From: Candidatus Omnitrophota bacterium
GTDB lineage: Bacteria; Omnitrophota; Gorgyraeia; Aquiviventales; Aquiviventaceae
Direction of reading: 5' to 3'
NCBI GenBank assembly: GCA_016198905.1
Contig: JACQHR010000032.1
Coordinates: forward strand, 74,390-138,389
Length of the DNA stretch: 64,000 nt
The notes beneath the pieces were generated by a model. It had not been told where the DNA came from. It was given only the letters and a program-made list of their open reading frames with translations, and did not search any database. Position numbers and translations under genes: made by a program. Shown here piece by piece: positions 4,187-53,129 of the stretch (positions within the stretch are counted from its first letter, which is position 1; each line of letters begins with the position of its first letter).

Positions 4187-4369
4187 ATTAAATGGCCTAT
4201 TTCTGAGGGACGCACGGCTGATTCATTGGGTGGTGACGCGCGACTCACGTATCCCGGAATCGTTTCGATCCCTCGACTCGCACCACCCCGCCTCGGCGGG
4301 GTGGGCTCGCTCGGGATTCCGCCCCACGGGCGAAGAGAAAGGGACCACGGGGTCTGCCCGTGGGGCTCC

Positions 4370-4717
4370 ATGAACGCGCTGTCAGACGCGCGGCCGTGGG
4401 GCCGATGGGAGATTCTCGCGACGGGCAGAGGCTGGCAAGTGAAGCGCCTGACGGTGAAGTCGGGCAAACGGTTGAGCCTGCAGTTTCATCGCCATCGCAG
4501 CGAGTACTGGGTGGTTGTCGCGGGACAGGGTCTGTTGACGCTGGGCAAGCGCACGATCCGGATCGCGCGCGGCTCAACGGCCCATATTCCGATCGGCATG
4601 GTGCATCGCGTGCAGAACACGGGACGCGAACTGTTGCAGATCATTGAAGTGCAGATGGGCCGTCGGATTGCCGAGCGCGACATCGTGCGGTTGGCCGACG
4701 ACTTCGGCCGAGTCTAA
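4370..4717 (+). CDS. Cupin-domain protein (phosphomannose-isomerase type II C-terminal-like)
   Basis: RPWGRWEIL...KRLTVKSGKRLSLQFHRHRSEYWVVV.G......H.IP.G..HR..N is the cupin/MPI motif. Internal ATG chosen at 4370; the region upstream is hairpin-rich non-coding sequence. Confidence 0.75.
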   Translation: MNALSDARPWGRWEILATGRGWQVKRLTVKSGKRLSLQFHRHRSEYWVVVAGQGLLTLGKRTIRIARGSTAHIPIGMVHRVQNTGRELLQIIEVQMGRRIAERDIVRLADDFGRV

Positions 4718-4871
4718 GGAGGCATAATGCGTTCTGGAAACTCATCTCGCGGCAAGGTAGGTCCCGTGTCCCCGGGACTCCCTTTGCTCGTTTCGAGCAG
4801 ACACTCAGAGGTCTGCTCGATCCAGAGAGGCAACCTTGATCGAGAACGACACAAATAGAGGAGGAACGAAC

Positions 4872-5665
4872 ATGTCATTCGTGAACAAGGTACGCGCAAC
4901 ACTACGGGTCGGCGGCACGACCATGTCCTACTTGACCTACAAAGCAATGACGCGTCCACAGGAAGCCAGAGCGTTCTTTCGGGACGTGGCCGATGCGGTG
5001 ACCGAATTTCCGACGCGCTCGCGGAAGCAATTGCGCACGCCAACATTGCCGTCCGTGTCGCTCGACCGCATCTGCCCGGATATCTCGTCGGTTCAGCTGA
5101 CTATTCGACCCCACATTCCTCGCGCGCACGAACTCACTGAGGCCGAATACCTCTCCATGGCCGCGCTGATCGCTTATTACCGTCCGCGCGCGATCTTTGA
5201 GATCGGGACGAATCGCGGTCGAACGACGCGGCTCATGGCTGAGGGAGCTCCCGCGTCGGCGAAAGTCTACACGCTTGATCTTCCGCCGGAGCGCATGAAC
5301 GAAAGCGGCTGTTTTCCGGAGGCGAATGGCGCGCTCATCGGGGAAGCGTTTCGGGATGCGCCCTGCCACACAAAGATCACTCAACTCTACGGTGATAGTC
5401 GGACGTTCGACTTTCGACCGTTCGCCGGAACGATGGATTTCATCTTCATTGACGGCGACCACAGCTATGAGGGCGTCAAGAGCGACACCGCGCATGCGTT
5501 CGAAATCATCTCTCGGGGGGGGTGATCATTTGGGATGACTACCATCCTGTGTATGGCCCCGGCGTGATGCAGTATCTTGAAGAGCTGGCGGCGACACTTC
5601 CGCTGCAGCACATTGGCAATTCGCGGTTTGTCTGGTATCGCGTCCCTGAGGGTCAGACGCCTTGA
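4872..5665 (+). pseudogene. Class I SAM-dependent methyltransferase, reading frame broken at a G8 run
   Basis: GGAGG RBS before ATG 4872. IFEIGTNRGRTT, VYTLDL and FIFIDGDHSY motifs. The frame stops at 5523-5525 right after G8 (5515-5522). The frame starting at 5522 continues VIIWDDYHPVYGPGVMQYLEEL...WYRVPEGQTP* to 5665. Confidence 0.7.
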
Positions 5666-5672
5666 AGCCAAG

Positions 5673-6986
5673 ATGAGCCACCCGACCGCTACCTCACAGC
5701 CGCACCGAACCGGACGACCGATCCGAGTGGGCTATTTTCTCCGAAGCACGGGATTCGGAGGAATGGAGCGGTATCTCATTGTCGTGTTACAGCGACTCGA
5801 TCGAAAGGCGATAGAGCCCATCCTATTCCTCCACACCACCAGTGATTCTCCGCGCGAGCAGTTGCTGCAGACCTTTGCCGACTTGCGCGTCCCAGTCTTC
5901 GAGATTGACCAACGAGGAGTACCGGTGATCGAAACGAACGGCCATGATCAGAGCCATCGCCGGAAAACGCCTCAAGCCGAAGCATCAGTGCAAACCGCTT
6001 CAGGCTTCGGATCGGCCATCACAGTTGCGAAGACGCTCTGGTGGTACTGGGCGTGCATTCGCCGGACGGCTCGCTCTCTTCGACCGCATCGTCTCGATGC
6101 GGTCCACTTTGTCGCTGGATGGTTTCCGTGCTTTGAGCTTGCGGTGCTCGGCAGCCAACTGGCAGGAATTCCTGTCCGGCTCGTCGACGTCATACAGGAA
6201 CCCTACGATTTGGCGTTGCTCGAACCAGAACGGCGATGGATCGTGCGTCTTGCGGGGCGCAGCGCCACGCACGTTCGCGCCATGAACCAGCAGATGCGCC
6301 GCCAACTCGAAACACAGTACGGCATTGCCGCGCGAAAAGTCCACGTGTTGAAAGGCGTCATTGATCTTGAGCGATTTTTCGAAAGCGACAACTCACCTGC
6401 AAGCGACGTGCGAACGTCGCTGGGATTGTCTCTGGATGCGCGCCTGGTAGCGACGTTAGGACGCTTGGGGGAATACAAAGGCAACGATCTCTTCTTGCAG
6501 GCGATTCAGGCGTTGCAGGAGCGGTTTCCCCAGGTGCACTACTTGATCATCGGAGACGGGCCGTTGCGTCACGAGCTACAGGCGCAAGCCAGTCAACTGG
6601 GCCTCAGCCGTCAGGTCCATTTTCTGGGATGGCACGACGACATTCCGCTTCTCTTGCGAGCCGCGGATCTTTTCGTGATGCCTTCGATGAAAGAAGGCGG
6701 GCCATACGTGGTGGTGGAAGCCATGGCATCCGGCACGCCTGTCATTGCCACCGATGTCGGGTTTGTCCGTGAGGTGATGCAGGAGAGGACGACGGGTCGA
6801 ATCGTGCGGTCTGGCAGCGTTGAAGATTTGGTTGCTGCGATGACGGACTTACTCGAGGCGGATCCATCTGTATTGAAACGCATGGGACTTGCTGCGCGGG
6901 AACATGTGCGCACCACGATCTTGCCAGAGCCGTGGTTTGAGCGCTTGCTGAGCATTTATAGCCGGATCACCCCGGGGGTTTCTTGA
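5673..6986 (+). CDS. Glycosyltransferase family 4 (GT-B)
   Basis: C-terminal MPSMKEGGPYVVVEAMASGTPVIATDVG (EX7E region). Start placed at internal ATG 5673 (MSHPTATS), 7 nt after the methyltransferase stop. Confidence 0.85.
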   Translation: MSHPTATSQPHRTGRPIRVGYFLRSTGFGGMERYLIVVLQRLDRKAIEPILFLHTTSDSPREQLLQTFADLRVPVFEIDQRGVPVIETNGHDQSHRRKTPQAEASVQTASGFGSAITVAKTLWWYWACIRRTARSLRPHRLDAVHFVAGWFPCFELAVLGSQLAGIPVRLVDVIQEPYDLALLEPERRWIVRLAGRSATHVRAMNQQMRRQLETQYGIAARKVHVLKGVIDLERFFESDNSPASDVRTSLGLSLDARLVATLGRLGEYKGNDLFLQAIQALQERFPQVHYLIIGDGPLRHELQAQASQLGLSRQVHFLGWHDDIPLLLRAADLFVMPSMKEGGPYVVVEAMASGTPVIATDVGFVREVMQERTTGRIVRSGSVEDLVAAMTDLLEADPSVLKRMGLAAREHVRTTILPEPWFERLLSIYSRITPGVS

Positions 6987-7953: not shown

Positions 7954-8933
7954 GCGAGCCGATCGTGAGCGTCGTCATCGCCACGCGCAACCGGGCCGCG
8001 ATGCTTAAAGAGGCCATCGCCAGCGTCGGCGCGCAGACGTATCAGGATTGGGAGCTCATCGTGGTGGATGACGGCTCGACCGATCAGACGAAGCGGGTCG
8101 CGCAGCAAGCGGCGAAGGACGATCCGCGCGTCCACTATCTTCGGCAGCCGGCCAGAGGCGGCGTGTCGAAAGCGCGCAATGCCGGCATCCACGCGGCGCG
8201 CGGGCGCTACATTGCGTTTCTCGATGACGATGACCAATTCGTTGCGGAGAAGCTCGCGACTCAAGTGGTGCACCTCGACCGTTCGCCCGAGGTGGGCTTC
8301 GTCTACGCGCAGAGCGAATGGGTGGATCGCCGCGGGACTTCGTTGGGAGTTCAGCCGACGGCGCCAGTGACTGATCTCAAGGGGCTGGTGGAGCACTGCG
8401 CGATCCCCCTGCAAACCGTCATGTGTCGTCGGGAACTGATCGAGCGGGTGGGCGGCTTCGATGAGCGGCTGTCGATCGGCGAAGACTACGACTTGTGGCT
8501 GCGGCTGGCGCGCATCACCCGGTTTGAGTTCGTCGCGCGTCCGCTGGTGCGCTACGGGGTGCATGGCGCCAATACGTGCAACGACAGCATCCGGCTCTAC
8601 GAGCAGCGGGCGATCATCCTGGCGCGCGTGCCGCTCGACCGTGCGCGGGGAATCACGTGGTGGTTCAAGCGCCGGCGCCTGGCGATCAACGCGTATCGGC
8701 TGGCGAGGCTGCACCACGAGGCGCGCGCTTTCGCGCAGGCGTCGGCGCATTTTGCCCGCGCGGTCGTCTACGACCCGATGGTCGGCCTGGCCATGGCCGA
8801 GCCGCGCCCTCGGGGGCTGGCGCGCCTGTGGGTGTCGCTGAAACCCTATCTGGCGATCGTGCTGCTCCTGATCGGGGTCAGTCCCCAAGCACGAAAAGTA
8901 GCGAGATCACCCGATTGGGGTCTGACCCCATGA
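7950..8933 (+). CDS. Glycosyltransferase family 2
   Basis: VSVVIATRNR, VVDDGSTDQT, AFLDDDD. ATGA start/stop overlap with the preceding gene. The track ORF's long N-terminal extension (from 7368) overlaps the previous GT2 out of frame. Confidence 0.9.
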   Translation: MSEPIVSVVIATRNRAAMLKEAIASVGAQTYQDWELIVVDDGSTDQTKRVAQQAAKDDPRVHYLRQPARGGVSKARNAGIHAARGRYIAFLDDDDQFVAEKLATQVVHLDRSPEVGFVYAQSEWVDRRGTSLGVQPTAPVTDLKGLVEHCAIPLQTVMCRRELIERVGGFDERLSIGEDYDLWLRLARITRFEFVARPLVRYGVHGANTCNDSIRLYEQRAIILARVPLDRARGITWWFKRRRLAINAYRLARLHHEARAFAQASAHFARAVVYDPMVGLAMAEPRPRGLARLWVSLKPYLAIVLLLIGVSPQARKVARSPDWGLTP

Positions 8934-11464
8934 GGATTGTGATTGTGGCACCAGAGGTGTTTCCGGTTCCACCGATCCGAGGCGGGGCGGTGGAGACCGT
9001 CATCGAGGAAATCTCCGCGCAGTTCCGTGACCACAAGGTAACCATTCTCGGCATTGCCGACGCGTCACTGCCGGTGCAAGAGACGAAGGAGCATCGGACA
9101 TATCGCCGTTGGAAGCGCACGGTCATTGATCGACTCTTGCTCTCGACGTGGAAGCTGCCGTTCAAACAGAGCAACTCGCCGTGGTACTACTGGCCCTACC
9201 AGCATTGGATCGCCAGGCAGGTGCAACGGCTGCGTCCCGACGTCGTGTGGGTGCACAGCCGCATCCAATTTGCGCCGGCGATTCGCCGCGCCGCCCCTCA
9301 CGCGCGGATGATCGTCAGCGTCCATCAACTGAGCACGCTGCGCGATGAGCGCGTCTGGCAGCAAGCGCGCGTCGCGTGTTGTGATGTGATCGCCGGTGTC
9401 AGCCAATTCATGATCGAGGCCATCGCTGCGCGGTATCCATGGACGCAACCCAAGACGCACGTGCTCTCAAACGGCGTTGACGTGACAGCCTATCAGCCGT
9501 GGTGGGCGCAGTCGGCCAGGCGCGAGCGGATGCGCCGCGAGCAGGGCTGGGGTGACGCGCCGGTGATCTTGTATGCCGGGCGGCTCGTCGAGCAAAAGGG
9601 CGTGCATGTGCTCGCCGATGCTTTCAAACAACTGGTAAGGGGTGAGGGGCGGGAGACAGGGGGCGCGGGATCCAACACGAAACCAATGCTGGTCATTGCC
9701 GGCGGCCACACGTACTCCGATGGGACAGAAACCGACTATATCAGGCAGTTGAAGCGCACGCTTGAGCCGCTGGGATCGCAGGTCGTCTGGCTGGGGTATC
9801 AACCGTCGAGCGCGCTGGTGAGCCTGTACGCGGCCAGCGACGTCGTCGTCGTCCCATCAATCAATCCGGAAGCGTTTTCCATGGTCACGGTTGAAGCGAT
9901 GGCCTCGGGTCTGCCGGTCGTTGCCTTCGCGCACGGCGGCCCAGCGGAGATCATTCGCCACGGCATCGATGGGTTCTTGGTGCCGGTCTCCCGCGGCGCG
10001 GAGGGTCTGGCCGAGGCGCTGCAAGCGTGCGTCAGCAACACCACCCTGCGGGAAGCCATCGGCCGCGAGGCCAGACGGACGGTAGAGGAGCGCTTTACGT
10101 GGCAGCGTGTGGCAGAGAGCTTCCTCAAATTGACTCAGGGACAAGGGACAGGGGACAGGGGGCGAGGGAATGCCCTTCCTACGCCCCGCGCCCCGCGCCC
10201 CGCGCCCCAGACACGCGCCGTCCCTATTCTTATTGCTGAGTCAGGATCAGGCTACGGAGGCAGCGCGAAATACCTCAGCGAGCTGGTGTCGCTGCTGGAT
10301 CGGCGACGCTTCCACGCGCAGGTGGTGGCGGCTGAAGAGGGGCCGTTCATTCGCAAGGTCAAAGAGCAGGGAGTGCCAGTAGCACTGAGGCCAAGTTGGA
10401 GATTCGCTTGGGGGCAGGGGGCGGGAGACGAGGGGCGGGGGAAGGGCCAGCACACAGCACTCAGCACGAACGTGAAACATGAAACGCGAAACGTGAAACG
10501 AACGTCGCATGTCCGGTTCGCGCTGGTTGCTGCTACACAGCTTTTGATCATGGTTCCAGCAATTGCCCTCTGGTTGAAGTGGCGGAGGATCCGGCTGGTG
10601 CATCTGAATAACGAGATCCTCTCGCACGTGCCGCTGGCGCTCGGAGCGAAACTCGCCGGCTGCCGCGTGGTGTGCCACCTGCACGGCTGGCGTCCGTTCA
10701 CGAGGCTGGAGCGCGCTGTGGCCGGTGTCGTTGATGAGTTCGTCTGCATTTCGGAGGCTGGCGCGCGGTACTTCGAATCGCAACTGCCGCATCGCCGGGT
10801 GGCCGCGATTCCCAACGGTATTCTGCTCAATGGTCAGTTGGACGGCCTTGACGTGAAACGAGCGCAGGTCCGTCGGCAGTTGGGGATCCAGCCCCATGAC
10901 GCGGTCATCGCCATCATCGGGCGCTTGGTGCCGTGGAAAGGCCAGGCAGTGTTCTTGAAGGCGTTGGCGGATGTCAGCCAGCGACACCCGGACGTGGTCG
11001 GCCTCATCGTGGGGCACGATGCCTCGCCAGGGCAGAGCTATCTGACACAGTTACAGTCGACTGCGCGTGAGCACGGCCTCGCTGAGCGTGGGCGCGTGCA
11101 CTTTGTCCCGTGGCTCGAGGACGTGTGGGGCATTTATGCCGCGGCGGACATCATCGTGCACGCTTCGACGCAGCCGGAGCCGTTCGGACTCGTGCTCATT
11201 GAAGCGATGGCGGCGGGCAAGCTCGTGATTGCCACGCGATCCGGTGGAGTCGTCGATATCGTCACGGATGGCCGGACAGGACTGCTGGTTGAGCCGGGCG
11301 ATCCGGATGGGCTGGCGCGCGCCATCACGCAGGTGGTGACTGATCCTTCGCGCGCCGCTGCGCTGGCTGAGGCCGGCCGGCAGCGCGCGCGAGACGTGTT
11401 CACCATGGAGCGCAACGCGCAGGCAGTCGCGCAGGTCTATCAGCGGCTGATGGTGTGCCGATGA
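8930..11464 (+). CDS. Double GT4 glycosyltransferase (two complete GT-B modules joined through element E3)
   Basis: Module 1: MRIVIVAPEVFPVPPIRGGAVE...VVPSINPEAFSMVTVEAMASGLPVVAF. Module 2: ILIAESGSGYGGSAKY...ASTQPEPFGLVLIEAMAAGKLVIATRSGG. ATGA overlap at 8930. Contains E2, E3 and E4 in frame. Confidence 0.85.
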   Translation: MRIVIVAPEVFPVPPIRGGAVETVIEEISAQFRDHKVTILGIADASLPVQETKEHRTYRRWKRTVIDRLLLSTWKLPFKQSNSPWYYWPYQHWIARQVQRLRPDVVWVHSRIQFAPAIRRAAPHARMIVSVHQLSTLRDERVWQQARVACCDVIAGVSQFMIEAIAARYPWTQPKTHVLSNGVDVTAYQPWWAQSARRERMRREQGWGDAPVILYAGRLVEQKGVHVLADAFKQLVRGEGRETGGAGSNTKPMLVIAGGHTYSDGTETDYIRQLKRTLEPLGSQVVWLGYQPSSALVSLYAASDVVVVPSINPEAFSMVTVEAMASGLPVVAFAHGGPAEIIRHGIDGFLVPVSRGAEGLAEALQACVSNTTLREAIGREARRTVEERFTWQRVAESFLKLTQGQGTGDRGRGNALPTPRAPRPAPQTRAVPILIAESGSGYGGSAKYLSELVSLLDRRRFHAQVVAAEEGPFIRKVKEQGVPVALRPSWRFAWGQGAGDEGRGKGQHTALSTNVKHETRNVKRTSHVRFALVAATQLLIMVPAIALWLKWRRIRLVHLNNEILSHVPLALGAKLAGCRVVCHLHGWRPFTRLERAVAGVVDEFVCISEAGARYFESQLPHRRVAAIPNGILLNGQLDGLDVKRAQVRRQLGIQPHDAVIAIIGRLVPWKGQAVFLKALADVSQRHPDVVGLIVGHDASPGQSYLTQLQSTAREHGLAERGRVHFVPWLEDVWGIYAAADIIVHASTQPEPFGLVLIEAMAAGKLVIATRSGGVVDIVTDGRTGLLVEPGDPDGLARAITQVVTDPSRAAALAEAGRQRARDVFTMERNAQAVAQVYQRLMVCR
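9637..9669 (+). repeat. E2: solo G-rich arm inside GT4 module 1
   Basis: AAGGGGTGAGGGGCGGGAGACAGGGGGCGCGGGA matches the left-arm consensus and is translated in frame as RGEGRETGGAG. No C-rich partner follows. Confidence 0.8.
10136..10208 (+). repeat. E3: G-arm/C-arm palindromic element fusing two GT4 cistrons
   Basis: Left CAGGGACAAGGGACAGGGGACAGGGGGCGAGGG, loop AATGCCCTTCCTA, right CGCCCCG x3 + CGCCCC. Translated as GQGTGDRGRGNALPTPRAPRPAP with no stop. Confidence 0.85.
10410..10504 (+). repeat. E4: chimeric three-block heptamer element inside GT4 module 2
   Basis: G-arm GGGGGCAGGGGGCGGGAGACGAGGGGCGGGGGAAGGG, then CAGCACA CAGCACT CAGCACG, then AACGTGA AACATGA AACGCGA AACGTGA AACGAAC (the E1-type GTGAAAC arm). 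In frame as GQGAGDEGRGKGQHTALSTNVKHETRNVKRT. Confidence 0.85.
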
Positions 11465-18025: not shown

Positions 18026-18437
18026 CAATGCCTATGACGTCTGCAGCGATCACAACCTTCAAAGACCTTCGCGTCTGGCAGGAAGGCATCCAGTTGGTCA
18101 AGGAGATCTATGCCCTCTGCGTCAAATTGCCGAAGGAAGAACTCTACGGCTTAGCGAGTCAGATGAAGCGCGCGGCGGTGTCGGTTCCATCCAACGTAGC
18201 AGAAGGCCATGCTCGAAAACACCGCGCCGAGTACAGACAGTACGTGTATATTGCGATCGGCTCGCTTGCGGAACTCGAGACGCACGTGCTCATTGCTAAG
18301 GAGTTGAACTTGTCTAATGGTGATGAGCTGACCCCGGTCCTTACACGCATTGACCGTTTGCGAGGGATGTTGCTGACGCTCGGGAGACGACTCGGATGAC
18401 GCCGTCCCCTCGCCCCTCGCCCCTCGCCCCTCGCCCC
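17989..18437 (+). repeat. E11: G-arm/C-arm palindromic cassette carrying a second four-helix-bundle gene
   Basis: Left TGGGGCAAGGGGCGTGAGACAGGGGGCGGGGG (17989-18020). Right (CCCCTCG)x4 + CCCCA (18406-18437). About 25 of 32 positions are complementary by hand alignment. Confidence 0.9.
18028..18399 (+). CDS. Four-helix-bundle protein (23S rRNA intervening-sequence protein family), second, divergent copy
   Basis: FKDLRVWQEGIQLVKEIY...QMKRAAVSVPSNVAEGHARKH..EYRQYVYIAIGSLAELETH. Starts 2 nt after the ligase TAG and has an ATGA overlap with the next GT4. Confidence 0.85.
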   Translation: MPMTSAAITTFKDLRVWQEGIQLVKEIYALCVKLPKEELYGLASQMKRAAVSVPSNVAEGHARKHRAEYRQYVYIAIGSLAELETHVLIAKELNLSNGDELTPVLTRIDRLRGMLLTLGRRLG

Positions 18438-20717
18438 ATTCGCGTGATGTTCGTGATCTGGTCGCTCGGCCTCGGCGGAGCGGAGCAGGCGGTGATCCGG
18501 CTGGCCGCGGGCCTTCGGCGCGAAGGGTTCGAGCCGTTGATCTGCTGTCTCAACGAGCCGGGTCCCTTCGCTGTGCAAGCGCAGGCCGCCGGCGTGCCCG
18601 TCGTGGCGCTGCACAAACGGTGGCGCTATGACGCGCGCGTGCTCTGGCGCTTGATGCGGTTGATGCGGCAGTGGCATCCGGACGTCGTGCACACGCATCT
18701 GTGGGGCGGCAACGCGTGGGGGCGGACGGCGGCCTGGCTGGTGGGTGTTCCGGTCATCGTCACGAGCGAGCGGAATCTGGATCCTTGGAAACGCTGGTAC
18801 TATTTTGTGATCGACCGCGTGCTCGCAGCGCGGACCACGACGTTGCTGGCCGTCTCCGAGTCCGTGCGGGCGTTCTACGAGCAGCACGGGGTCGGCCGCG
18901 GCCGCTGGCAAGTCTGCTACAACGGCGTCGATATCGCCGACGTAACACCCCGGCAGCGAGGAGCCGTGTTCGCGCAACTGGGCGCGCAGCATGGCGAGCC
19001 GGTCGTCGGCTTCATCGGACGCTTGGCTTCGGCAAAGGCTCCGGATGTGTTCGTCGAGGCGGTCGCACAGGCGCGCCGAACACTCCCTTCGCTGAAAGCG
19101 CTCATCGTCGGCGACGGGCCGCTGCGCAGCGAGGTTGAAGCCTTGGCGCGTCGATTGGGATTGGATGGGCATCTCGTGGTGACCGGCGTGCGCGAGGATA
19201 TCCCGGAGCTGCTGGCGGGGATGGACGCGCTGATGGTGTCGTCCGAGCGCGAGGGGCTCTCCATGGCGATGTTGGAGGCCATGGCGGCAGGAGTCCCGGT
19301 TATCGCGACTCGAGTAGGAGGCACTCCTGAACTCATCGAGCCGGGGATGACCGGACTGCTTGCGCCTCCAGGCGCGCCCGACGCATTGGCGCGCCAGTTG
19401 GTGGCACTCCTGACCAATCCCGCGCACGCGCAGGCCATTCGCGATGCGGCCCGCGCGCGAGTGGCGAAGGATTTTTCCATGCAGCGCGTGGTGGCGACGC
19501 ATGCAGCAGTGTACCGCCGCGGCCTCAAGCAGGCCAACCGTGCAGGACTCAGTGATCGCGTCAAAGAGGCGGCGGCATCGCTTCCCATCGCTCACCGCGC
19601 TCGCCTCCGCGTCATGCATGTCATCGACGATCTCGGACTCGGAGGCGCGCAGCGGCAGCTCGTGGAGCTCGTCAAGGCGTTCCCGCGGGATCGCTATGAG
19701 CTGCACGTTGTGAGTCTCTCGACGACGAAGACGGACTACGCGGAGGCGCTCCACGCAGCGGAGATTCGCCTGACGCAAATCCCGCAGGCCGGCAAATGGG
19801 ATGGCCGTTGTTTTTCGACGCTCTCCACGCTGATCAAAACCGAGAAGCCTTCCATCGTCCACACGTGGCTCTTTACCGCCGACCTCTATGGCCGCATGGC
19901 GGCGTGGGTGGCGCATGTGCCGGTCATCATCAGCGCGGTGCGCAGTGTGGAGCCGGATAAGCCCGCGCACTACGTCGTGGTGGATCGCGTCCTGCGCAAC
20001 ATCACCAGTGCCTTCACCGTCAATGCGCGCGCGATTGGCGAGGTGCTGACGGCGCGCGAGCATGTGCCGACGGAGAAGATTCATACGATCTATAACGGGC
20101 TCGATCTGCGCGCCCTGGATCCATCCCGCGTGAATGGAGCGATTCGGCGCGCCATCGCCGTCGGCGCCGACGTCCCCCTGATCGGGATCGTCGGGCGTCT
20201 AGCGCCGGTGAAGGATCACGCCACGTTTCTGCGCGCGGCAGTGCGCGTGCATCGTGAAGCGCCACAGGCGCGGTTTCTCATCGTCGGCAACGGTTTGCTT
20301 CACGGCGAGCTCGAGCAGTTGAGCCAATCATTGGGCCTGAGCGATGTCGTTCGCTTTCTCGAGAGCCAATCCAACGTAGCCGAGGTGTTCGCCGCGCTCG
20401 ATGTCGTCGTCGTGTCCTCCCTCTATGAAGGCTGCTGCAACGTGATCCTCGAAGCGATGGCGATGGGCAAGCCCGTGATCGCCACAGCCGTCGGGGGCAA
20501 TCCTGAGCTCATCAGCGACGGGCAAACCGGGCTGCTCGTGCCCGTGGGCGATGATGCGAAGCTGGCCGAGGCGATGGTGAGCCTGCTGCGTGATCCGCAG
20601 CGCGCGCAGGCGATGGGCCGCTCGGGGCGAGCGCGCGTGGAGTGCGACTTCGCCATCGAGCGGATGGTCGTCGCAACCGATCGCGTCTATCAGAAACTGT
20701 TGAGTCGCGCCCCATGA
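18396..20717 (+). CDS. Double GT4 glycosyltransferase (natural tandem fusion, no element at the joint)
   Basis: Module 1: IRVMFVIWSLGLGGAEQAVIRLAAGL...SSEREGLSMAMLEAMAAGVPVIATRVGG. Module 2: LRVMHVIDDLGLGGAQRQL...SSLYEGCCNVILEAMAMGKPVIATAVGG. The N-terminal MTPSPRPSPLAPRP is the E11 right arm (alternative ATG 18447). Confidence 0.85.
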   Translation: MTPSPRPSPLAPRPIRVMFVIWSLGLGGAEQAVIRLAAGLRREGFEPLICCLNEPGPFAVQAQAAGVPVVALHKRWRYDARVLWRLMRLMRQWHPDVVHTHLWGGNAWGRTAAWLVGVPVIVTSERNLDPWKRWYYFVIDRVLAARTTTLLAVSESVRAFYEQHGVGRGRWQVCYNGVDIADVTPRQRGAVFAQLGAQHGEPVVGFIGRLASAKAPDVFVEAVAQARRTLPSLKALIVGDGPLRSEVEALARRLGLDGHLVVTGVREDIPELLAGMDALMVSSEREGLSMAMLEAMAAGVPVIATRVGGTPELIEPGMTGLLAPPGAPDALARQLVALLTNPAHAQAIRDAARARVAKDFSMQRVVATHAAVYRRGLKQANRAGLSDRVKEAAASLPIAHRARLRVMHVIDDLGLGGAQRQLVELVKAFPRDRYELHVVSLSTTKTDYAEALHAAEIRLTQIPQAGKWDGRCFSTLSTLIKTEKPSIVHTWLFTADLYGRMAAWVAHVPVIISAVRSVEPDKPAHYVVVDRVLRNITSAFTVNARAIGEVLTAREHVPTEKIHTIYNGLDLRALDPSRVNGAIRRAIAVGADVPLIGIVGRLAPVKDHATFLRAAVRVHREAPQARFLIVGNGLLHGELEQLSQSLGLSDVVRFLESQSNVAEVFAALDVVVVSSLYEGCCNVILEAMAMGKPVIATAVGGNPELISDGQTGLLVPVGDDAKLAEAMVSLLRDPQRAQAMGRSGRARVECDFAIERMVVATDRVYQKLLSRAP

Positions 20718-23700
20718 ACGTGATCAAACTTCTGAAACTGGCGTTTGTGGCCGCGCATGCCGGCGTCATCGGGCTGGTGATCCTCCGGGCGTGGAGCCTA
20801 AGCCTTGCCGAATCGCGCGCGGTCGCGGGGCGGTTTCTGCGCGTCGCCCTGACGCGGTTGCTCCTGGTCGTGATGGTGGAGCTCAGCCCGTATGTCTACG
20901 CCAGGTTCGTGGAGCCCAACATGGTGGTCGTCACGCGCCTGAGGGTGGCGCAGGATCAACTGGCGCACGCGTTGGGCGGTCGGCGCGTGGTGCAGATCAC
21001 CGATCTGCATATCACGACGATCGGCGCTCGCGAGCGGCGGCTCATCCAGCGCGTCAATCGGCAGCGCCCGGACTGGATTGTCATCACCGGCGATTTGATC
21101 AATGACGCCGCAGGCTGGCGCGCAGCCCTCGAGGTCATCGGCCGCCTGAAGGCGACGCAAGGGATTTGGGTCGTTCCCGGCAATACCGATAACGCGATCC
21201 TCAGCCCGGACTCGTTTGCCCAGGGCCTGGCCGGTGTCAACGCCAAGGTGCTGCGCAACAGCCGCATCCGAATGGCCGAGACCGACGCGTGGCTGGTAGG
21301 CGTCGACGATCCGGTGGAGCGCCGCGACAGCCTCGACGAAGCGCTCAAGGGAATGGATCGCAGCGCGCCACCTCCCATGATCCTGCTCGCCCACTCGCCG
21401 GACATCCTGGATGCTGCGGTTGCCGCGCGCATCCCGCTGGTGCTGGTGGGCCACACGCATGGAGGCCAGCTGGGTATTCCCTGGCTGCGCCGGTTGTCCT
21501 CCTACGCCGACCGCGGTCCCTACGTCGGCGGCGGACGCTATCACGTGGAGCAGACCACGATGTATGTCAACCGCGGCATCGGCTGGAAAGAAATCCCGCA
21601 CCGATTCCTTGCGCCGCCCGAAGTGCTGGTCATCGAGTTTAGACCGCAGGGAAAGCGAGCCGCACCGACGGCGGAGAGCCCGCCGGTTCGCGCGGAAGTC
21701 TGGCTGAGCGACTTCGAGCGCGATGGCGAAGAAGCGGTGCTGTGGAACGTGTTCAACGCATTCGCCACCCACAGCCGCGAGCACGCGAGCCACGGGCAGG
21801 CCTGCGCGAAGGTCACGCTGAAAGCCGGGTTCTCATCTTCCTACGCGTTGGAGGACGACTTTCTCACGCGCGATCCCGCGCGCCGCGACTGGACGCGCGA
21901 CGAAGCGCTCGCCTTCGATGTGTACAACGCGCAATCCGTTCCGGAGCCGCTGATCGTGCGGATCCGCGACGACGGAAAAGGCCTGTACGAGGAGACGATA
22001 ACCCTGCCAAGCCGAGTCCCGCACACGGTCACGCTGTCGCTCGCAGATCTGAGCCGCTCGCTTGATCTCTCGCGCGTCAGTGGGCTCGCGCTCTTGCGCA
22101 AAGACTCGACGCACGACGTCGTCCTGTACCTCGATGCGGTGCGGCTGCTGCCGCGGCGCGCGGGTGCGCCGGCTTCCGGCGTGTCGACGGGGGCGGCCAC
22201 CGAAGAGCCAAGTGCGCTTGAGGACGCCGCCGTCACCCCGCACATGTTGGGCCGCTGGCACTTCGAGCATGATCTCGTCTCGCGCTGGCGCGCGGCCGAT
22301 CCTGCCACAGGACGTTCGGTTGTGCGCGTGCCGCTTACCGTCGTCGGGCCGCAGATGCCGCTCTCCGTCGGGCAGCCGATCGCAGGCGGGATTCCATTTG
22401 CGATGGGGCAGTTGGCGGCGAACGCCGCAATCCGCGTGCATGACATGAACGGGGCCGTCTGGCCGGCGCAGACGCGGCCCTTGGCGGTGTGGGAAGACGG
22501 CAGCGTGAAATGGCTGCTCGTCACCGCCCAGGTGCCGATGACGGCGCGCAGCCGGCAGCTCTGGCTCGAATACGGCGAACCGGTTGCGGCCGACCCGGCC
22601 CCTCAGCCGCGCGTGCGTGTGGACGACACGCCGCAAGCCGTGACCGTCACGACCGGCCCGCTTCGCTTCACGGTCAGCCGGCGGCACTTTACGCTCTTTG
22701 ACTCAACCTTCGTCGACAGGAACCGCGATGGCGTGTTTGCGGAGGCGGAGCGGCTGGCCAGCGCCGGAGATTTGGTGCTGAAGCGCGGCGACACTGAATT
22801 TCGCAGCTCGCGCGACACGGTCTCTTACATGCTGCAGGTCGAAGAAGCCGGCCCTGTGCGCGCGACGCTGAAGGCCAGCGGGTGGTTCCGCGATGCGGCG
22901 GGCCGCGGATTCTGCCAGTTCACCGTGCGGCTGCAGGCCTTCGCCGGGCTGCCGCAGGTGCGGGTGTACCACACCTTCATCTATACCGGCTATCCGGCGA
23001 ACCTCTACAACCCCAACTACGAGGGCATCAAGCTGCCGGCCAACGAGACGATCCAGGACATCAGCCTCGAGCTGCCGGTCACACTCGGCGCCACGACGCA
23101 GCTGATCACCGCGGATGAGCAAGGCCTGGTGACCGCGCCGCTTACCAACCCGACGAGCATCTCGCAGCTGGCGCACGACGCGTATCAGATTCGGCAGCAA
23201 GGTGCGGCATCACCGCTGCGCGCCGGCGCGCACCATGAGGGCTGGCTGCTCATGCAGGATAGCAACGCCGGAGTCATGGTAGGTGTGCGCGACGCCTGGC
23301 AGCAGTATCCCAAGGCGTTCGAGGTTGACGCAGCGTCGCGTCGGCTGATCGTGCGCCTGTGGCCGTCATCGGCGGGAGACTTGAACTTGGAGACCGGAGC
23401 CGACGCGTACGGGCCGGATGCGGTCGCGCGCGGCAGCGCCTTCGGATTGGCGAAAACGCATGAGCTGTGGGTCGGGTTTCTCGGAGCGGTGATCGACGGC
23501 TCGACGGCCCGCGCGCTGGCCGGGTTGTGGCAAGAACCCTGGTTGCTGTCGGCGCATCCGGCGTGGGTCCAGGATACCGACGCGCTCGGCACCGTCGGTC
23601 CAGCAGAGATGGATCGGTTTCCCGAGCAGGAAGCGATGCTCGAGGACGTCTTCGGCTGGGCAAAGCGGCAGCCGCAGCGCTTCGACTGGTACGGGATGCT

Positions 23701-26383
23701 CGACTATGGCGATACGCGGACGTGGTATCGCAAGGACGCTTACGACAAATCCTACGACGACTGGGGCTGGCACCCGGAGGGCCGCTGGGGCTGGCACAAC
23801 TGCGAGGCGGTGGGCAGCCACGGGGGCGCGCTGATGAGCTTCCTGCGGACGCAGGAGCTCAAGTACTTCCGCTTCGGCGAGGCGAAGGCGCGCCACGTGA
23901 TGGACGTCGACACCGTCCACTACGATACGATTGCCAACGACTCGCGGCTTTCGCGCAAGCTCTCGGATGAGTTCTCGAAGGTCGGCTCCATGCACCGCCA
24001 CAACGCCTATCACTGGGGCGGGCGCAACGAGGAGGCCACGCACACGAACGTCGCCGGGCTGCTCCTCTACTACTATCTCACCGGCTATGAGCGCGCGCTG
24101 GATGTCGCGAAGGAAGCCGGCGGCTTCATGCTGTTTGATCCGGTGACCTACACCAAGCATCCGGACATCGCCCCCTCGCGCGCGATCGGCAACGTGCTCT
24201 GGAACGATACACTCCTCTTTGAAGCCACCGGCGAGCGGCGCTACCGCACCGCGGCCGAGCGGTGGGTGCGCGTGCTGCTCAAAGGCCAGCAGAAAGACGG
24301 CACGTGGCTGGAGACGTACAATCCGCGCAACGGCACCTGGTACGGCGATGTCAAGACGAACTACCTCTGCTACCACGTGCTGCCGGCGCTCATCGCCTAC
24401 CACCGCCTGACCGGCAACCCGGCCGTCGCCCAGGCGATTGTGATGGGCACCAATGCGATGATCGCCAAGGAGCCGTACCTGCAGTTCTTCGACGCGCTGG
24501 CCTACAGCTTTCTCATCACGGGCAAGGGCGAGTACGTTGATGAAGGGCTGCGGCGAGCGATGGCGCTGTATCGGTCGCAGCGGCGCGATGAAGATCCGGC
24601 GTTCAACGGCACCGTTTTTGAGAAGGCAACCTATGACCGTGTGGGGCCGATCCTGTATTCCGTGCCGTTTGCCATCGGCGCGATGGACGCGACGGATTTT
24701 CCAACGCTGGAGCAGTCCTTCCAACCCCCATCACGACCAACGAGCACGCCTCCTCGCTCGACACAGACCAGTCAGCAGGCTTCCCCCACAGCCACCGCGC
24801 AGACCGGCGCATCCTATGAAGTGCTTGTCGTCCCGTCGATGGAAAAAGTGTTTCCTCAGGATCAGCGGCCGGCGAGCGCGCACAGCAATCCGGCGGTGCT
24901 GGCACTCGCCCGCAACGAATATGAGTCCGTCCAGCTCGTGCTACGAGCCAGCGCCCCGCTGGAACAGGTGACGGTTGAGACGCACGATCTGACGCGCACC
25001 GACGGCACGGGTGTCATTCCTCGTGACGCGCTGACGTGGTTTCCGGTCGGGTTTGTGAAGACGAGGCAGCCGGACTATGACGTCTCGCGCGTGGGCTGGT
25101 GGCCTGATCCGTTGCTCGATCCAACACCGTTTGCCGTCCAGGCAGGATGGTGGCAGCCGATGTGGCTGACGGTGTACGCAGCCCCCGGCACGCCTGCAGG
25201 AGAGTACACGGGCACCGTGACGATCCGGCCAGGCAATGCGCCGCCCAAAGACGTCGAGGTGAAGGTGCGGGTGTGGGATTTCGACTTGCCGGCGACCCCG
25301 ACGCTCAAAAGCGCGTTTGACGTCTATCCGGCGAGAATCGACAGCGCCTACCGCCAATTCTTTCCGCAGTGGTGGCCGCGCGTGCAGGGACGGACCGCGC
25401 AGCTGACGCAGTGGATCGATGACGACCTCCTTCGCCATCGTCTGGCACCGATGCTCAACGCGGATCTCCAGCGGCCCGAGACGATGAGCGAGCTGCGGCG
25501 CCTGCGCGCGAAGGGGCTGAGCGCATTCGCCATCGGTCGCTACAGCGGCAGCTTCGACAACAACTGGCCCACGGACGGCACGCAGCTCGAGCAGCTCCAA
25601 CCCGTGTACCGGGCGTATGGCTACCAGCTGCGCGACGCCAAGCTGATCGATCGGCACTACATCTATACGTACGATGAACCGGCGCCGGGGCTGCCGCATG
25701 TCGCCGCAGTCGCGCACATGGTGCACGACGCGGATCCGCAACTGAAGAACCTGGTAACACTCGGCGCGCCGATGGATGTGACAGCGCTCGCCGGGTGGTT
25801 GAAGGACATCGATATCGTCTGCCTGCGCAACGTGATCGCGCAGTCGGAATCGATCCGCGCCCTGCAGCAGATGGGCAAAGAAGTCTGGCTCTACGTCTCC
25901 GGGCCGAAGCCGCCGTATCCGACGCTGGTGATCGATTATCCGTCGCTGGCCTATCGCATCCTGCCGTGGATGTGCTGGAAGTACGGCATCCGCGGACTGC
26001 TCTATTGGAGCGTCAATTACTGGACGACGAACCCGTACGAGCAGCCGATGAATACGCCGTGGCAACAAAACGGCAACGGCTCGTTGTACTATCCAGGACC
26101 CGAGGGCCCGCGCCCGTCGCTGCGGCTGGAAGTGCTGCGCGATGGGATGGAGGACTACGAGTATCTGTCCCGGTTGCGCGAGTTGATCCAATCAGCGAAG
26201 GCCGGCGGGCGCATCGATGCCGCGACGTTGGCCCGGGCGGAACAGTTGGTGAACGTGAATGACGGGTTCGTGGAGTCGCTGCGCGTCTACTCGAATGATC
26301 CCGCGGTGCTGTTGGCGCAGCGTCAGGCGATTGCAGAGATGATCGAGAAGCTCCAAAACATACTGAAGGGGCAAGGGGCATGA
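20714..26383 (+). CDS. Giant membrane-anchored multidomain protein: metallophosphoesterase + polysaccharide lyase/hydrolase-like region + DUF4091-like domain
   Basis: Two N-terminal hydrophobic helices. Phosphoesterase motifs: QITDLHIT, ITGDLIND, VPGNTDN, LLAHSPD, GHTHGGQ. A long beta/alpha-toroid-like middle region (tentatively PcRGLX/YetA-like). P/S/T/Q linker (PPSRPTSTPPRSTQTSQQASPTATAQ). C-terminal WWPDPL...LLYWSVNYW (DUF4091/GH123-like). ATGA overlap at the start. Stop lies inside the E12 left arm. Confidence 0.7.
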   Translation: MNVIKLLKLAFVAAHAGVIGLVILRAWSLSLAESRAVAGRFLRVALTRLLLVVMVELSPYVYARFVEPNMVVVTRLRVAQDQLAHALGGRRVVQITDLHITTIGARERRLIQRVNRQRPDWIVITGDLINDAAGWRAALEVIGRLKATQGIWVVPGNTDNAILSPDSFAQGLAGVNAKVLRNSRIRMAETDAWLVGVDDPVERRDSLDEALKGMDRSAPPPMILLAHSPDILDAAVAARIPLVLVGHTHGGQLGIPWLRRLSSYADRGPYVGGGRYHVEQTTMYVNRGIGWKEIPHRFLAPPEVLVIEFRPQGKRAAPTAESPPVRAEVWLSDFERDGEEAVLWNVFNAFATHSREHASHGQACAKVTLKAGFSSSYALEDDFLTRDPARRDWTRDEALAFDVYNAQSVPEPLIVRIRDDGKGLYEETITLPSRVPHTVTLSLADLSRSLDLSRVSGLALLRKDSTHDVVLYLDAVRLLPRRAGAPASGVSTGAATEEPSALEDAAVTPHMLGRWHFEHDLVSRWRAADPATGRSVVRVPLTVVGPQMPLSVGQPIAGGIPFAMGQLAANAAIRVHDMNGAVWPAQTRPLAVWEDGSVKWLLVTAQVPMTARSRQLWLEYGEPVAADPAPQPRVRVDDTPQAVTVTTGPLRFTVSRRHFTLFDSTFVDRNRDGVFAEAERLASAGDLVLKRGDTEFRSSRDTVSYMLQVEEAGPVRATLKASGWFRDAAGRGFCQFTVRLQAFAGLPQVRVYHTFIYTGYPANLYNPNYEGIKLPANETIQDISLELPVTLGATTQLITADEQGLVTAPLTNPTSISQLAHDAYQIRQQGAASPLRAGAHHEGWLLMQDSNAGVMVGVRDAWQQYPKAFEVDAASRRLIVRLWPSSAGDLNLETGADAYGPDAVARGSAFGLAKTHELWVGFLGAVIDGSTARALAGLWQEPWLLSAHPAWVQDTDALGTVGPAEMDRFPEQEAMLEDVFGWAKRQPQRFDWYGMLDYGDTRTWYRKDAYDKSYDDWGWHPEGRWGWHNCEAVGSHGGALMSFLRTQELKYFRFGEAKARHVMDVDTVHYDTIANDSRLSRKLSDEFSKVGSMHRHNAYHWGGRNEEATHTNVAGLLLYYYLTGYERALDVAKEAGGFMLFDPVTYTKHPDIAPSRAIGNVLWNDTLLFEATGERRYRTAAERWVRVLLKGQQKDGTWLETYNPRNGTWYGDVKTNYLCYHVLPALIAYHRLTGNPAVAQAIVMGTNAMIAKEPYLQFFDALAYSFLITGKGEYVDEGLRRAMALYRSQRRDEDPAFNGTVFEKATYDRVGPILYSVPFAIGAMDATDFPTLEQSFQPPSRPTSTPPRSTQTSQQASPTATAQTGASYEVLVVPSMEKVFPQDQRPASAHSNPAVLALARNEYESVQLVLRASAPLEQVTVETHDLTRTDGTGVIPRDALTWFPVGFVKTRQPDYDVSRVGWWPDPLLDPTPFAVQAGWWQPMWLTVYAAPGTPAGEYTGTVTIRPGNAPPKDVEVKVRVWDFDLPATPTLKSAFDVYPARIDSAYRQFFPQWWPRVQGRTAQLTQWIDDDLLRHRLAPMLNADLQRPETMSELRRLRAKGLSAFAIGRYSGSFDNNWPTDGTQLEQLQPVYRAYGYQLRDAKLIDRHYIYTYDEPAPGLPHVAAVAHMVHDADPQLKNLVTLGAPMDVTALAGWLKDIDIVCLRNVIAQSESIRALQQMGKEVWLYVSGPKPPYPTLVIDYPSLAYRILPWMCWKYGIRGLLYWSVNYWTTNPYEQPMNTPWQQNGNGSLYYPGPEGPRPSLRLEVLRDGMEDYEYLSRLRELIQSAKAGGRIDAATLARAEQLVNVNDGFVESLRVYSNDPAVLLAQRQAIAEMIEKLQNILKGQGA

Positions 26384-34660: not shown

Positions 34661-35362
34661 ATGAGTGTCTTGGTGGCAAGGTTGATGAGCGTGAGAGAAG
34701 AGCTTGCACTTGAGCTACAACGCTTCACGCTGCTGTGGCGCTATCAGCACCACGTGCCCCCATTTACGCTGTGGTGGCGCTTGGTGCTCAAGCGCATCTT
34801 TGATGCCGCCTCAGCGCTTGTTGGTGTGCTCCTTGTCAGCCCGGTCATGGCTCTGATCGCGCTGGCGGTCAAATTGGAATCTAAGGGTGCTGTGATTTAT
34901 GCGCAAGAACGCGTCGGGCGGTTTGGCCAGACGTTCAAGATGTACAAATTTCGCTCCATGCGCATCGATGCCGAATTGAGCGGCCCTGTGTGGGCATCGG
35001 CCGAGCATGATCCTCGCCTCACGCGCCTCGGCGGCTTCCTTCGCCACACGCATCTCGATGAACTTCCCCAACTCTTCAACGTCATCAAAGGCGACATGAG
35101 CTTGGTAGGGCCGCGTCCTGAGCGGCCCTATTTTGTTGAGTCGCTCAACCGAGAGATTGCTCGCTACGACGAGCGGCTCCTGATCAAGCCGGGCATGACA
35201 GGCCTCGCCCAGGTCCACTATCGCTACGACCAAACGATCGCAGACGTCGAGAAGAAGCTTCGCTACGACTTGCTCTACGTCAAGCGCATGTGCCTCATGC
35301 TGGACGCGCGAATTCTCGCGTGGACATTGCTCGTGGTGGTGAGTGGACGAGGCATTCGGTAA
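34661..35362 (+). CDS. Polyprenyl-phosphate sugar-1-phosphate transferase (bacterial sugar transferase, EpsL/WbaP C-domain type)
   Basis: KRIFDAASALVGVLLVSPV, YKFRSM, DELPQLFNVIKGDMSLVGPRPERP. Confidence 0.9.
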   Translation: MSVLVARLMSVREELALELQRFTLLWRYQHHVPPFTLWWRLVLKRIFDAASALVGVLLVSPVMALIALAVKLESKGAVIYAQERVGRFGQTFKMYKFRSMRIDAELSGPVWASAEHDPRLTRLGGFLRHTHLDELPQLFNVIKGDMSLVGPRPERPYFVESLNREIARYDERLLIKPGMTGLAQVHYRYDQTIADVEKKLRYDLLYVKRMCLMLDARILAWTLLVVVSGRGIR

Positions 35363-35413
35363 ATGTGGAAACAAGGGTTGGTGAGTTTCATGTCACAACA
35401 CAAGGAGGGGTTG

Positions 35414-36343
35414 ATGAAGCGGTACGCAGTAGCAGTGATTGGAATCCTGCTGAGCCTCGGAGTCGTGGCGACTCCAGCGTCAGCAGCGGTTTTTGTCGCC
35501 GGTGCGGACAACCAGGTTTTCTTCGTGAACTTCGAGAACCTCTATGACTCCACAGGAAAGTGGCTCAACCCGTTTACGGCACCTGTCCCGGGACAGATCT
35601 TGTCCGGGATCATTGGGTTGAACGGTCTTCGTGTCAACAATGTCGACTCCGACTTCGATGACACGACGTTTCAGTTGAGCGGTGTCTTCGCGCAGGAAAT
35701 CGTGTCGATTGACGCCATGACTGGCACGTTAACACTTGGCGTTCCGACAGTGACCACCTACTACAAGGACTTGGACTTGAGTGGTGGGATCACCGCAGGG
35801 GATGACGTGTATAGCACGGGTCTTGCTCCGGGGTCTGAAATGTTCGCCTTCTACCTGCAGCAGAGCCCGGATCCTGTTACCACACTCGAATCCGACGGTA
35901 CGATGCTGGACGACGTGACCAAGGCGACGGACGGTAGCCTATTCCTGACCCTCGGATTCACCGACCCAGGTGCTGGTGTGGACCCTGGATACGCGTTCAC
36001 GGCCTTATTTCCGCCTCCCCTGTTTCCGGCCGGGCTGTCTTTTGCCGGTTTGAACTTGATCCAGAACAACTCAGGGTTCACCTTTGCGGGACTGGACAAC
36101 CCATTTGAGAACGTCTTCAATGGGACCCTTCAGCAGGTTGTGTACCAGACGTCATTTAACCTGAACCCGCCTGGTTTGAACAACCCGAATCCTGATCCAG
36201 GAACTTCGCCCTGGGAGTTCATCAGCAATGACCCGGCACTGATCCACCCTGACACTGTCATTCCTGAGCCGTCCTCGATGTGGTTGCTCGGGATGGGTCT
36301 GGGTAGCTTCGGCGTGTTCCGCCGCAAGAAGTTCTTGGTGTAA
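35414..36343 (+). CDS. PEP-CTERM sorting-domain secreted protein
   Basis: AAGGAGGGG RBS. Signal peptide MKRYAVAVIGILLSLGVVATPASA. C-terminus VIPEPSSMWLLGMGLGSFGVFRRKKFLV (PEP motif + TM + basic tail). Confidence 0.9.
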   Translation: MKRYAVAVIGILLSLGVVATPASAAVFVAGADNQVFFVNFENLYDSTGKWLNPFTAPVPGQILSGIIGLNGLRVNNVDSDFDDTTFQLSGVFAQEIVSIDAMTGTLTLGVPTVTTYYKDLDLSGGITAGDDVYSTGLAPGSEMFAFYLQQSPDPVTTLESDGTMLDDVTKATDGSLFLTLGFTDPGAGVDPGYAFTALFPPPLFPAGLSFAGLNLIQNNSGFTFAGLDNPFENVFNGTLQQVVYQTSFNLNPPGLNNPNPDPGTSPWEFISNDPALIHPDTVIPEPSSMWLLGMGLGSFGVFRRKKFLV

Positions 36344-47910: not shown

Positions 47911-48789
47911 ATGGGAGTTTTGCCTCGTTCAATCCAACCCACCTCTCGCCAGCTGATATTTAGTCTCTTTTACGCGGCCTGCTTCATGGCGCTCTTCTGG
48001 CCGACATTTACCTGGCTGGCCGAGCGGTTTGATGCCCACGACTCCTTCTATTCGCACGGCTGGCTCATTCCATTTGCCAGCGCGTGGCTGATTTGGCAGC
48101 GTCGCGTTCAATGGGAGGCGTGTCCCCGAGCCGCCAGCTATCGCGGGTTAGCGCTGCTCGCACCGTCACTCCTCATCCATCTCGTGGCGACGCGGCTTGA
48201 CCTGCATTTCGCATCGGGATTTGCGATGTTGGGCGCGATCTGGGGACTGGTGTGGACGTGTTGGGGTTGGCGGATGTTATGGACCTTGCGGTTTCCGATG
48301 CTGTTTCTCCTCTTCATGGTGCCGCTGCCAGGCGTCTTGCTCATTTCCATCAGCTTCAAGATGAAAATGATGGCGGCGACTCTCGCGACTCACGCGCTGC
48401 ACCTTATGCAGATTCCCGCGGAACGAGCCGGCTCAACCATCAACGTCCCCGGAGTCTCGGTCGTGGTCGATGATACCTGCAGCGGCCTCCGCTCGCTCAT
48501 CAGCCTGATCGCGCTGTCGGTGTTTTGGACGTCGTGTATGCCGGCCGCCTCGCGTCAGTGGCAGAAGCTGGCCATCGTGGCCGCGTCGATACCTATTGCG
48601 TTGGCGGCGAACATGGTGCGGATTCTTGCTCTGGTCTTGCTTGCGGCCATCTACGGATCGCACGCCGCTGAAGGCTACTTGCACTACGGCTCTGGGATTG
48701 TGGTGTTTGTCGTCGCACTGGCCATCCTCGCGTGGATGACCCGATGGATTCAACAATGGTCACGTCCCTCACTCGGCCTCAACCAATAG
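47911..48789 (+). CDS. Exosortase (EpsH/Xrt family)
   Basis: W..D..FYSHGWLIPF, VVDDTCSGLRSLISL (catalytic Cys context), ANMVRI and HYGSG. 8 or more TM segments. Confidence 0.9.
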   Translation: MGVLPRSIQPTSRQLIFSLFYAACFMALFWPTFTWLAERFDAHDSFYSHGWLIPFASAWLIWQRRVQWEACPRAASYRGLALLAPSLLIHLVATRLDLHFASGFAMLGAIWGLVWTCWGWRMLWTLRFPMLFLLFMVPLPGVLLISISFKMKMMAATLATHALHLMQIPAERAGSTINVPGVSVVVDDTCSGLRSLISLIALSVFWTSCMPAASRQWQKLAIVAASIPIALAANMVRILALVLLAAIYGSHAAEGYLHYGSGIVVFVVALAILAWMTRWIQQWSRPSLGLNQ

Positions 48790-49379: not shown

Positions 49380-49385
49380 CCGCCC

Positions 49386-51975: not shown

Positions 51976-52040
51976 CTGCACGGGACGCCAAGTCCGTGAC
52001 GTTGTAATCTACAGCTCATGTCTGAGTCTTGGGACGGGTG

Positions 52041-53093: not shown

Positions 53094-53129
53094 AGCCCAT
53101 CCCACCTAAGATTGCCGTGTCTGGAGAAA

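Follow-up and report, generated by a model that had tools for sequence, protein, structure and literature searches.

A one-base frame break beside a G8 tract in a polysaccharide-cluster O-methyltransferase gene of Candidatus Omnitrophota: probably a recent loss-of-function allele

The stretch of DNA analysed here, called the window, spans 64,000 nucleotides of a 145,201-bp GenBank contig from a Candidatus Omnitrophota MAG. It carries a long co-directional polysaccharide cluster in which several GT2 and GT4 glycosyltransferase genes are accompanied by two Wzy_C genes, two polysaccharide deacetylases, a mannose-6-P-isomerase-type cupin, a Bac_transf priming transferase, a PEP-CTERM protein, an exosortase EpsH with DUF3485, a histidine kinase, a sigma-54 activator and RpoN. 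An earlier note, made from the sequence, had placed a broken methyltransferase gene in a glycan context, and the gene does lie within this cluster. The features around the break are as follows.

4370..4717, + strand, upstream neighbour, a cupin that resembles the C-terminal domain of mannose-6-phosphate isomerase
4858..4865, + strand, Shine-Dalgarno-like GAGGAGGA, 6 nt 5' of the ATG at 4872
4872..5525, + strand, truncated methyltransferase ORF, 217 codons and TGA by translation, equal to MBI3997038.1
5466..5468, + strand, TAT codon of Tyr199, nearly invariant in the family and TAA in the relative L001
5514..5522, + strand, C and G8, the site of the one-base deficit, as read in the window and the Logan contigs, the relative L001 having CC in front of its Gs
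5523..5525, + strand, premature TGA due to the frameshift, by translation
5522..5665, + strand, out-of-frame C-terminal 47 codons and TGA, carrying the remainder of strand beta5 (WDDY), one helix and the two final strands
5673..6986, + strand, downstream neighbour, the GT4 glycosyltransferase MBI3997039.1

In the window the G8 tract occupies 5515-5522 (GGGGGGGG), with TCTC directly 5' and TGATC directly 3' of it (flanks ...ATCATCTCTC on the 5' side and TGATCATT... on the 3' side). The ORF that starts at 4872 ends in ...AHAFEIISRGG (...DFIFIDGDHSYEGVKSDTAHAFEIISRGG) and is closed by the TGA, and the frame from 5522 reads VIIWDDYHPVYGPGVMQYLEELAATLPLQHIGNSRFVWYRVPEGQTP (VIIWDDY...) up to a stop at 5663-5665. 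The position of the tract and of the stop, and the arithmetic of the break, are those given in the earlier note, and adding one G does restore the frame and translates into a protein of 264 aa, as that note had calculated; the tryptic peptide across the junction of the restored protein is GGVIIWDDYHPVYGPGVMQYLEELAATLPLQHIGNSR. The note's proposal of G9 as the repair holds in that G9 reopens the frame, but G9 is not the sole single-base repair, for an inserted C (CC+G8) mends the frame as well and yields SPGGV, which is the family consensus and agrees with the close relative L001. The GenBank protein MBI3997038.1 is identical to the truncated ORF and is annotated as a 'class I SAM-dependent methyltransferase', an ordinary CDS and not a frameshifted pseudogene.

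The restored protein matches Pfam Methyltransf_24 (PF13578) with 63.6 bits against a cut-off of 26.3, over residues 110-224, a match that spans the break and upholds the methyltransferase identity first read from the sequence; Methyltransf_3 is matched at 26.2 (cut-off 22), and no NCBIfam model was found for the restored protein. A protein search returned 208 homologues, and the full-length ones are all about 250-280 aa long and read [P/S]GG[VIL]I[IV]WDDY across the junction. When 50 family members were aligned the junction read [P/S/R]GG[VIL]I[ILV]WDDY; E110, G112, T113 and G116 are invariant in this alignment, as are W221 and D223, which together with the nearly invariant G217 and Y224 stand at or just past the break. 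The AlphaFold (AF2) model of the restored protein, built on the 50-sequence alignment (pLDDT 92, pTM 0.84), places the break inside strand 213-221, the core strand beta5, and leaves helix 230-239 and strands 246-248 and 254-257 to be encoded in the shifted frame only. The best Foldseek matches are SafC, COMT and CCoAOMT (E about 1e-11 to 1e-9), and the Foldseek search of the PDB and the sequence search together lead to the cation-dependent class I O-methyltransferases SafC, COMT, CCoAOMT and TrmR/YrrM. A Rossmann-like seven-stranded fold with a glycine-rich SAM-binding loop and a profile match above the curated cut-off, as expected of a class I SAM methyltransferase, are thus both present, and the uninterrupted coding sequence is lacking, the last 47 residues lying in the other frame.

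The predicted fold and the SAM-binding motif are like those of SafC (5LOG), COMT, CCoAOMT and TrmR/YrrM, and the D..H / WDD region corresponds to the IDAD...GGLIILDN of cation-dependent class I O-methyltransferases, yet identity to these enzymes is only 15-23% and, unlike them, the protein carries an N-terminal helical extension of about 90 residues. As the gene stands in a glycosyltransferase cluster, its substrate is probably a sugar and not a catechol as in COMT-type enzymes. A homologue that is 44% identical when aligned in full (47% in its best local BLASTP match) sits in a similar GT2/GT4 cluster (locus L015), where, as here, the flanking genes comprise GT2, GT4, Wzy_C and deacetylase genes, and from gene context at both loci a role in exopolysaccharide methylation is reasonable to assume. 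Judging from the model, the 217-aa product, which is without the WDD motif, the next helix and the last two strands, would not form an active fold. No paralogue able to compensate was found within the window, and a scan of 4300-5900 for promoters and terminators found nothing.

Among 5.8 billion protein clusters a single sequence, P0001, exceeds 53% identity; it is carried on three short ENA groundwater contigs (L001-L003) that show 95.5% DNA identity to window positions 4855-5519. This relative is itself broken. Where the window reads AGC TAT GAG, L001 reads AGC TAA GAG, a nonsense codon at the nearly invariant Tyr199, 16 codons 5' of the tract. Contigs L002 (1082) and L003 (958), which are independent MEGAHIT contigs from different groundwater metagenomes, both end at ...AGCTA, equivalent to window position 5467 and one base before the position that distinguishes TAT from TAA. 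Read as a branch in a de Bruijn graph, these ends suggest that TAT and TAA alleles may coexist.

The end of L001 also bears on which base was lost. It reads ATCATCTCTCCGGGG against ATCATCTCTCGGGGG in the window, that is, CC and then at least four Gs before the contig stops, and its TCTCCGGGG translates as TCT CCG GGG..., Ser-Pro-Gly-Gly, the family consensus. In the family alignment the residue before Gly-Gly is Pro in 28 of 50 sequences and Arg in 3 of 50. The ancestral in-frame state may therefore have been CC+G8 (SPGGV), in which case the lesion would be loss of a C beside the tract and not of a G from G9; alternatively, a C-to-G change would have been followed by slippage from G9 to G8, which takes two events. 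The possible loss of this C and the relative's own nonsense mutation are two points that the earlier note had overlooked. Among the 5.8 billion protein clusters there was no intact allele closer than 53% identity, and scans of genome contigs and JGI metagenomes gave only homologues at 47% identity or less and no intact close orthologue. For the downstream part of the relatives' tract, a search with the GT4 neighbour gave only 100%-identical Logan contigs of the same population; a protein search with the C-terminal 76 aa for relatives gave no match, and exact look-ups of the upstream neighbours and the truncated ORF gave no contigs.

Between the window and L001 we counted 20.5 synonymous and 6.5 non-synonymous differences (dS 0.14, dN 0.013). 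From the resulting dN/dS of 0.095, purifying selection acted on the gene during most of the period after the lineages diverged. Out of frame though it is, the tail contains no stop and no indel and keeps W221 and D223; its mean identity to homologues is 0.41 compared to 0.48 for the core, and its identity to the closest homologue 0.61 compared to 0.65. Since the tail is undecayed and dN/dS is this low, both null mutations appear recent. Relaxed constraint, which would be looked for in a pseudogene, is thus not seen, there being no further lesions, and if the gene is a pseudogene it is a very young one. The disruption of an ORF that is intact in the homologues is, for its part, reproduced in Logan assemblies.

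These assemblies also speak to whether the break exists at all. A true sequence that is in frame (C+G9 or CC+G8), with one base dropped in sequencing or assembly, would fit the intact downstream frame and the purifying selection, which are what a functional gene would show; the contigs are metagenomic, and errors are classically found in homopolymers and G-rich stretches. Illumina consensus over a homopolymer of 8-9 nt is, however, normally reliable, and Logan assemblies of SRR12113385, SRR12113390 and SRR12113401 match the window at 100% identity along 1.7-5 kb. The tract is covered by two Logan contigs (SRR12113385 and SRR12113401), and both read TCTC-G8-TGATC, so that a different assembler and two separate Illumina libraries arrive at the same C+G8. 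Although the libraries and assemblies are separate, the runs probably share their project and population with the MAG and are not independent populations. Their agreement excludes errors of the assembler and random errors, though not a miscall that is systematic and specific to the chemistry. Positions 1-19 of L013 and of L014 are Nextera transposase adapter (AGATGTGTATAAGAGACAG); as adapter remnants begin these contigs, their data are Illumina, and it is because of the adapter that they break at 5549 and 5464, not at the tract. In addition, none of the approximately 45 ORFs of the window showed another frame break or a truncated Pfam domain, and the runs C8 (50945) in the sigma-54 activator and C7 (43999) in the FeeM-like gene are both in frame in intact genes. 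A sequencing error, one of the options of the earlier note, is therefore improbable. Still less probable, to the point that we give it very little credence, is that the break is real in the DNA and bypassed by recoding, whereby a -1 frameshift on G_GGG_GGG (5516-5522), transcriptional slippage that adds a G, or reinitiation at GTGA would supply some full-length or two-piece enzyme. A slippery heptamer does lie in the zero frame, G GGG GGG formally fits X_XXY_YYZ and a -1 slip yields SRGGVIIW..., a stop codon stands immediately 3' of the heptamer, GTG at 5522 overlaps the TGA, and the tail is undecayed. Yet G_GG.G_GG.N motifs are among the poorest shifters in E. coli, where G_GG.G_GG.U reaches 0.018% without a stimulator and G_GG.G_GG.G is not among the motifs above 0.1% (PMC4066793). 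No stimulatory element was found here either: the 78 nt downstream have a folding energy of -23.7 kcal/mol (z = -1.0) with only a 6-bp hairpin, the 161-nt context has z = +0.84, and there is no SD-like element at the usual distance upstream. The two-frame arrangement is also absent from homologues, 49 of 49 aligned ones being single uninterrupted ORFs across the junction, and a two-piece enzyme split inside a beta-strand is unlikely to be active. The gene thus resembles dnaX, IS3/IS911 and phage tail chaperones in having a zero-frame slippery heptamer with the rest of the protein in the downstream frame. In contrast to them, its motif is poor, the search revealed no stimulator, homologues do not share the arrangement, and the frameshift product would be the only useful one and not a second isoform. 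With a poor motif class and no significant structure, -1 PRF was rejected as the main explanation.

Slipped-strand phase variation, in which the G tract is a contingency locus whose length moves in and out of frame and switches methylation of a surface glycan on and off in subpopulations, the assemblies having caught the off state, had also been offered in the earlier note; we found no positive support for it, there being no length variants on record, no enrichment of tracts and no conservation in homologues, and we hold it to be unlikely. The ORF does contain a mononucleotide run of at least about 7 (G8), and a G8 in a glycan-modifying ORF is the architecture of cj1426 and its neighbours in C. 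jejuni, cj1426 being, with cj1420, cj1421 and cj1422, polyG phase-variable, and encoding a capsule 6-O-methyltransferase (PMC8437040). As there, a G homopolymer lies in a methyltransferase ORF of a surface-polysaccharide cluster and a one-base change truncates the enzyme, although this likeness is one of architecture and not a comparison of the enzymes. The perfectly preserved downstream frame and purifying selection until recently would be expected of a switch, the relative's different null allele and the L002 and L003 ends at the variable base suggest on/off polymorphism in nature, and the end of the L001 contig lies within the tract. The AT-rich genome of C. jejuni, however, has a strong excess of polyG/C tracts of at least 7, which gather in its glycan loci; ON as well as OFF lengths occur there, and the measured switching is about 2e-2 (PMC8437040). 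By contrast, the window is 61% GC, its tracts occur at chance, one length is seen and the tract is shared neither by relatives nor by homologues. Under a first-order Markov model of the 64 kb window, 2 G/C runs of at least 8 are observed where 1.94 are expected, no concentration of tracts in surface genes was found in that window, and the other long runs (C8, C7) lie in frame in the sigma-54 activator and the FeeM-like gene. All three assemblies that cover the tract have G8, products of G6, G7, G9-G12 and CC+G8 are absent among 15 billion catalogued proteins, and an exact look-up found no record of the 47-aa tail as a separate ORF. Nor is the tract kept up in related genes: the 95.5%-identical relative starts it with CC, homologues encode the motif without a tract (TCT GGC GGC ATG, CCT GGG GGC GTG, AAC GGA etc.), and of the Gly-Gly pairs sampled just one is encoded by GGG GGG. 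The tract itself is at chance level; it is the interruption of a conserved domain by a frame break that goes beyond it. The relative's null is a nonsense substitution and not a reversible switch, and if the in-frame state was CC+G8, tract slippage alone would not undo the loss of C by the same path.

Taking these results together, we propose, with a probability of roughly 0.6, that the break is a real one-base deletion at the C/G8 boundary and that it marks a recent loss-of-function allele of the cluster O-methyltransferase, with no demonstrated programmed switch. A recent inactivating mutation, the genuine pseudogene among the options of the earlier note, is the best supported of them, given C+G8 in two Logan assemblies, a dN/dS of 0.095 and the undecayed tail. 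Slippage or misalignment during replication at the junction of CC and the G run would most likely have created the lesion, an ancestor with CC+G8 (Ser-Pro-Gly-Gly-Val) losing a C or one with C+G9 losing a G. The TGA at 5523-5525 ends translation in the middle of strand beta5 of a class I SAM O-methyltransferase of cation-dependent type; the product would be inactive and the polymer would be made without the methyl group. The stop of the restored gene lies 7 nt before the start of the GT4 gene, whereas that of the broken gene lies 147 nt before it; with ribosomes stopping at the latter distance, expression of the downstream glycosyltransferases may also drop. The lesion would be the dominant allele in the sampled population, reversal by slippage being possible, and the tract length on which this is based was read from consensus assemblies, so that a minority of in-frame lengths is possible in the population. 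An allele of this kind would behave as a loss-of-function allele or nascent pseudogene. What counts against this explanation is that an undecayed tail is also expected if the tail is still translated through switching or recoding, and at a mutable G8 it is population dynamics alone that separates a 'pseudogene' from a 'switch in the off state'.

The kind of event we propose is already well known and involves no new mechanism. Like ordinary frameshift pseudogenes at short homopolymers, the gene has a single-base indel, a premature stop and two ORF fragments that match one homologue; unlike them, it has no further disabling mutations and a past of strong purifying selection, and it is listed as a normal CDS. 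For annotation, the 217-aa fragment merits a frameshift flag, and the enzyme should be taken as inactive when metabolism or glycans are inferred from the MAG. In two groundwater populations that are closely related, one polysaccharide-modifying gene has recently been hit by different null mutations following a period of purifying selection, a small but concrete hint that surface-glycan decoration is under turnover in these uncultivated bacteria. A bolder idea, which we regard as doubtful, is that the gene is a contingency locus of free-living or episymbiotic groundwater Omnitrophota, in which slippage at the C/G run turns the methylation of an exosortase-linked exopolysaccharide on and off. 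If true, natural populations would repeatedly carry null alleles of the gene, the frameshift here and the relative's nonsense mutation being two of them, perhaps because phages or predators exert pressure on the surface glycan, and phase variation of glycan methylation, in the style of pathogens, would extend to environmental candidate phyla.

A distant homologue from another Logan run, P0110 (L016 795-851), carries a frameshift a few codons after PGG, where a T is lost in GCA-TGG-CAT and the sequence reads GCAGGCATG; it could be real or an assembly error. As this frameshift is not at a homopolymer, a recurrent hot spot at the PGG motif was rejected.

The surroundings of the methyltransferase gene differ between the window (positions 4718-4871 and 6332-6785 were compared) and its relatives. 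Homology with L001-L003 starts abruptly at 4855, just 5' of the ribosome-binding site, and upstream of the methyltransferase these contigs carry a GT4 gene (L001 1-718, L002 1-469, L003 1-345) and not the cupin. The first 454 nt of the L001 GT4 are 93.6% identical to the downstream GT4 of the window (6332-6785), and its 3' end matches the GT4 of L002 and L003, a mosaic that points to recombination among glycosyltransferase genes.

Elsewhere in the window, the C8 at 50945-50952, the only other homopolymer of 8 or more, falls at about residues 129-131 of the response-regulator/sigma-54 activator gene (50560-51975), between the receiver and AAA+ matches. The PEP-CTERM/exosortase hallmarks, which comprise the Bac_transf, PEP-CTERM, EpsH/DUF3485, histidine kinase, response regulator and RpoN genes, lie at 34661-36343 and 47911-54536, and the histidine kinase is of PAS type and the response regulator sigma-54-dependent. 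Between two GT2 genes, at 1312-1758, stands a gene of the '23S rRNA-intervening sequence protein' family (PF05635), and inside the polysaccharide cluster an ORF of 1913 aa (20642-26383) combines calcineurin-like phosphoesterase and PcRGLX-like (rhamnogalacturonan lyase-like) domains with a GH123 catalytic domain. Two ORFs, at 8576-11464 and 18396-20717, are tandem-fused double glycosyltransferases with two complete GT4 modules each, of 962 and 773 aa as listed, and Logan gene calls put the start of the former later, near 8930.
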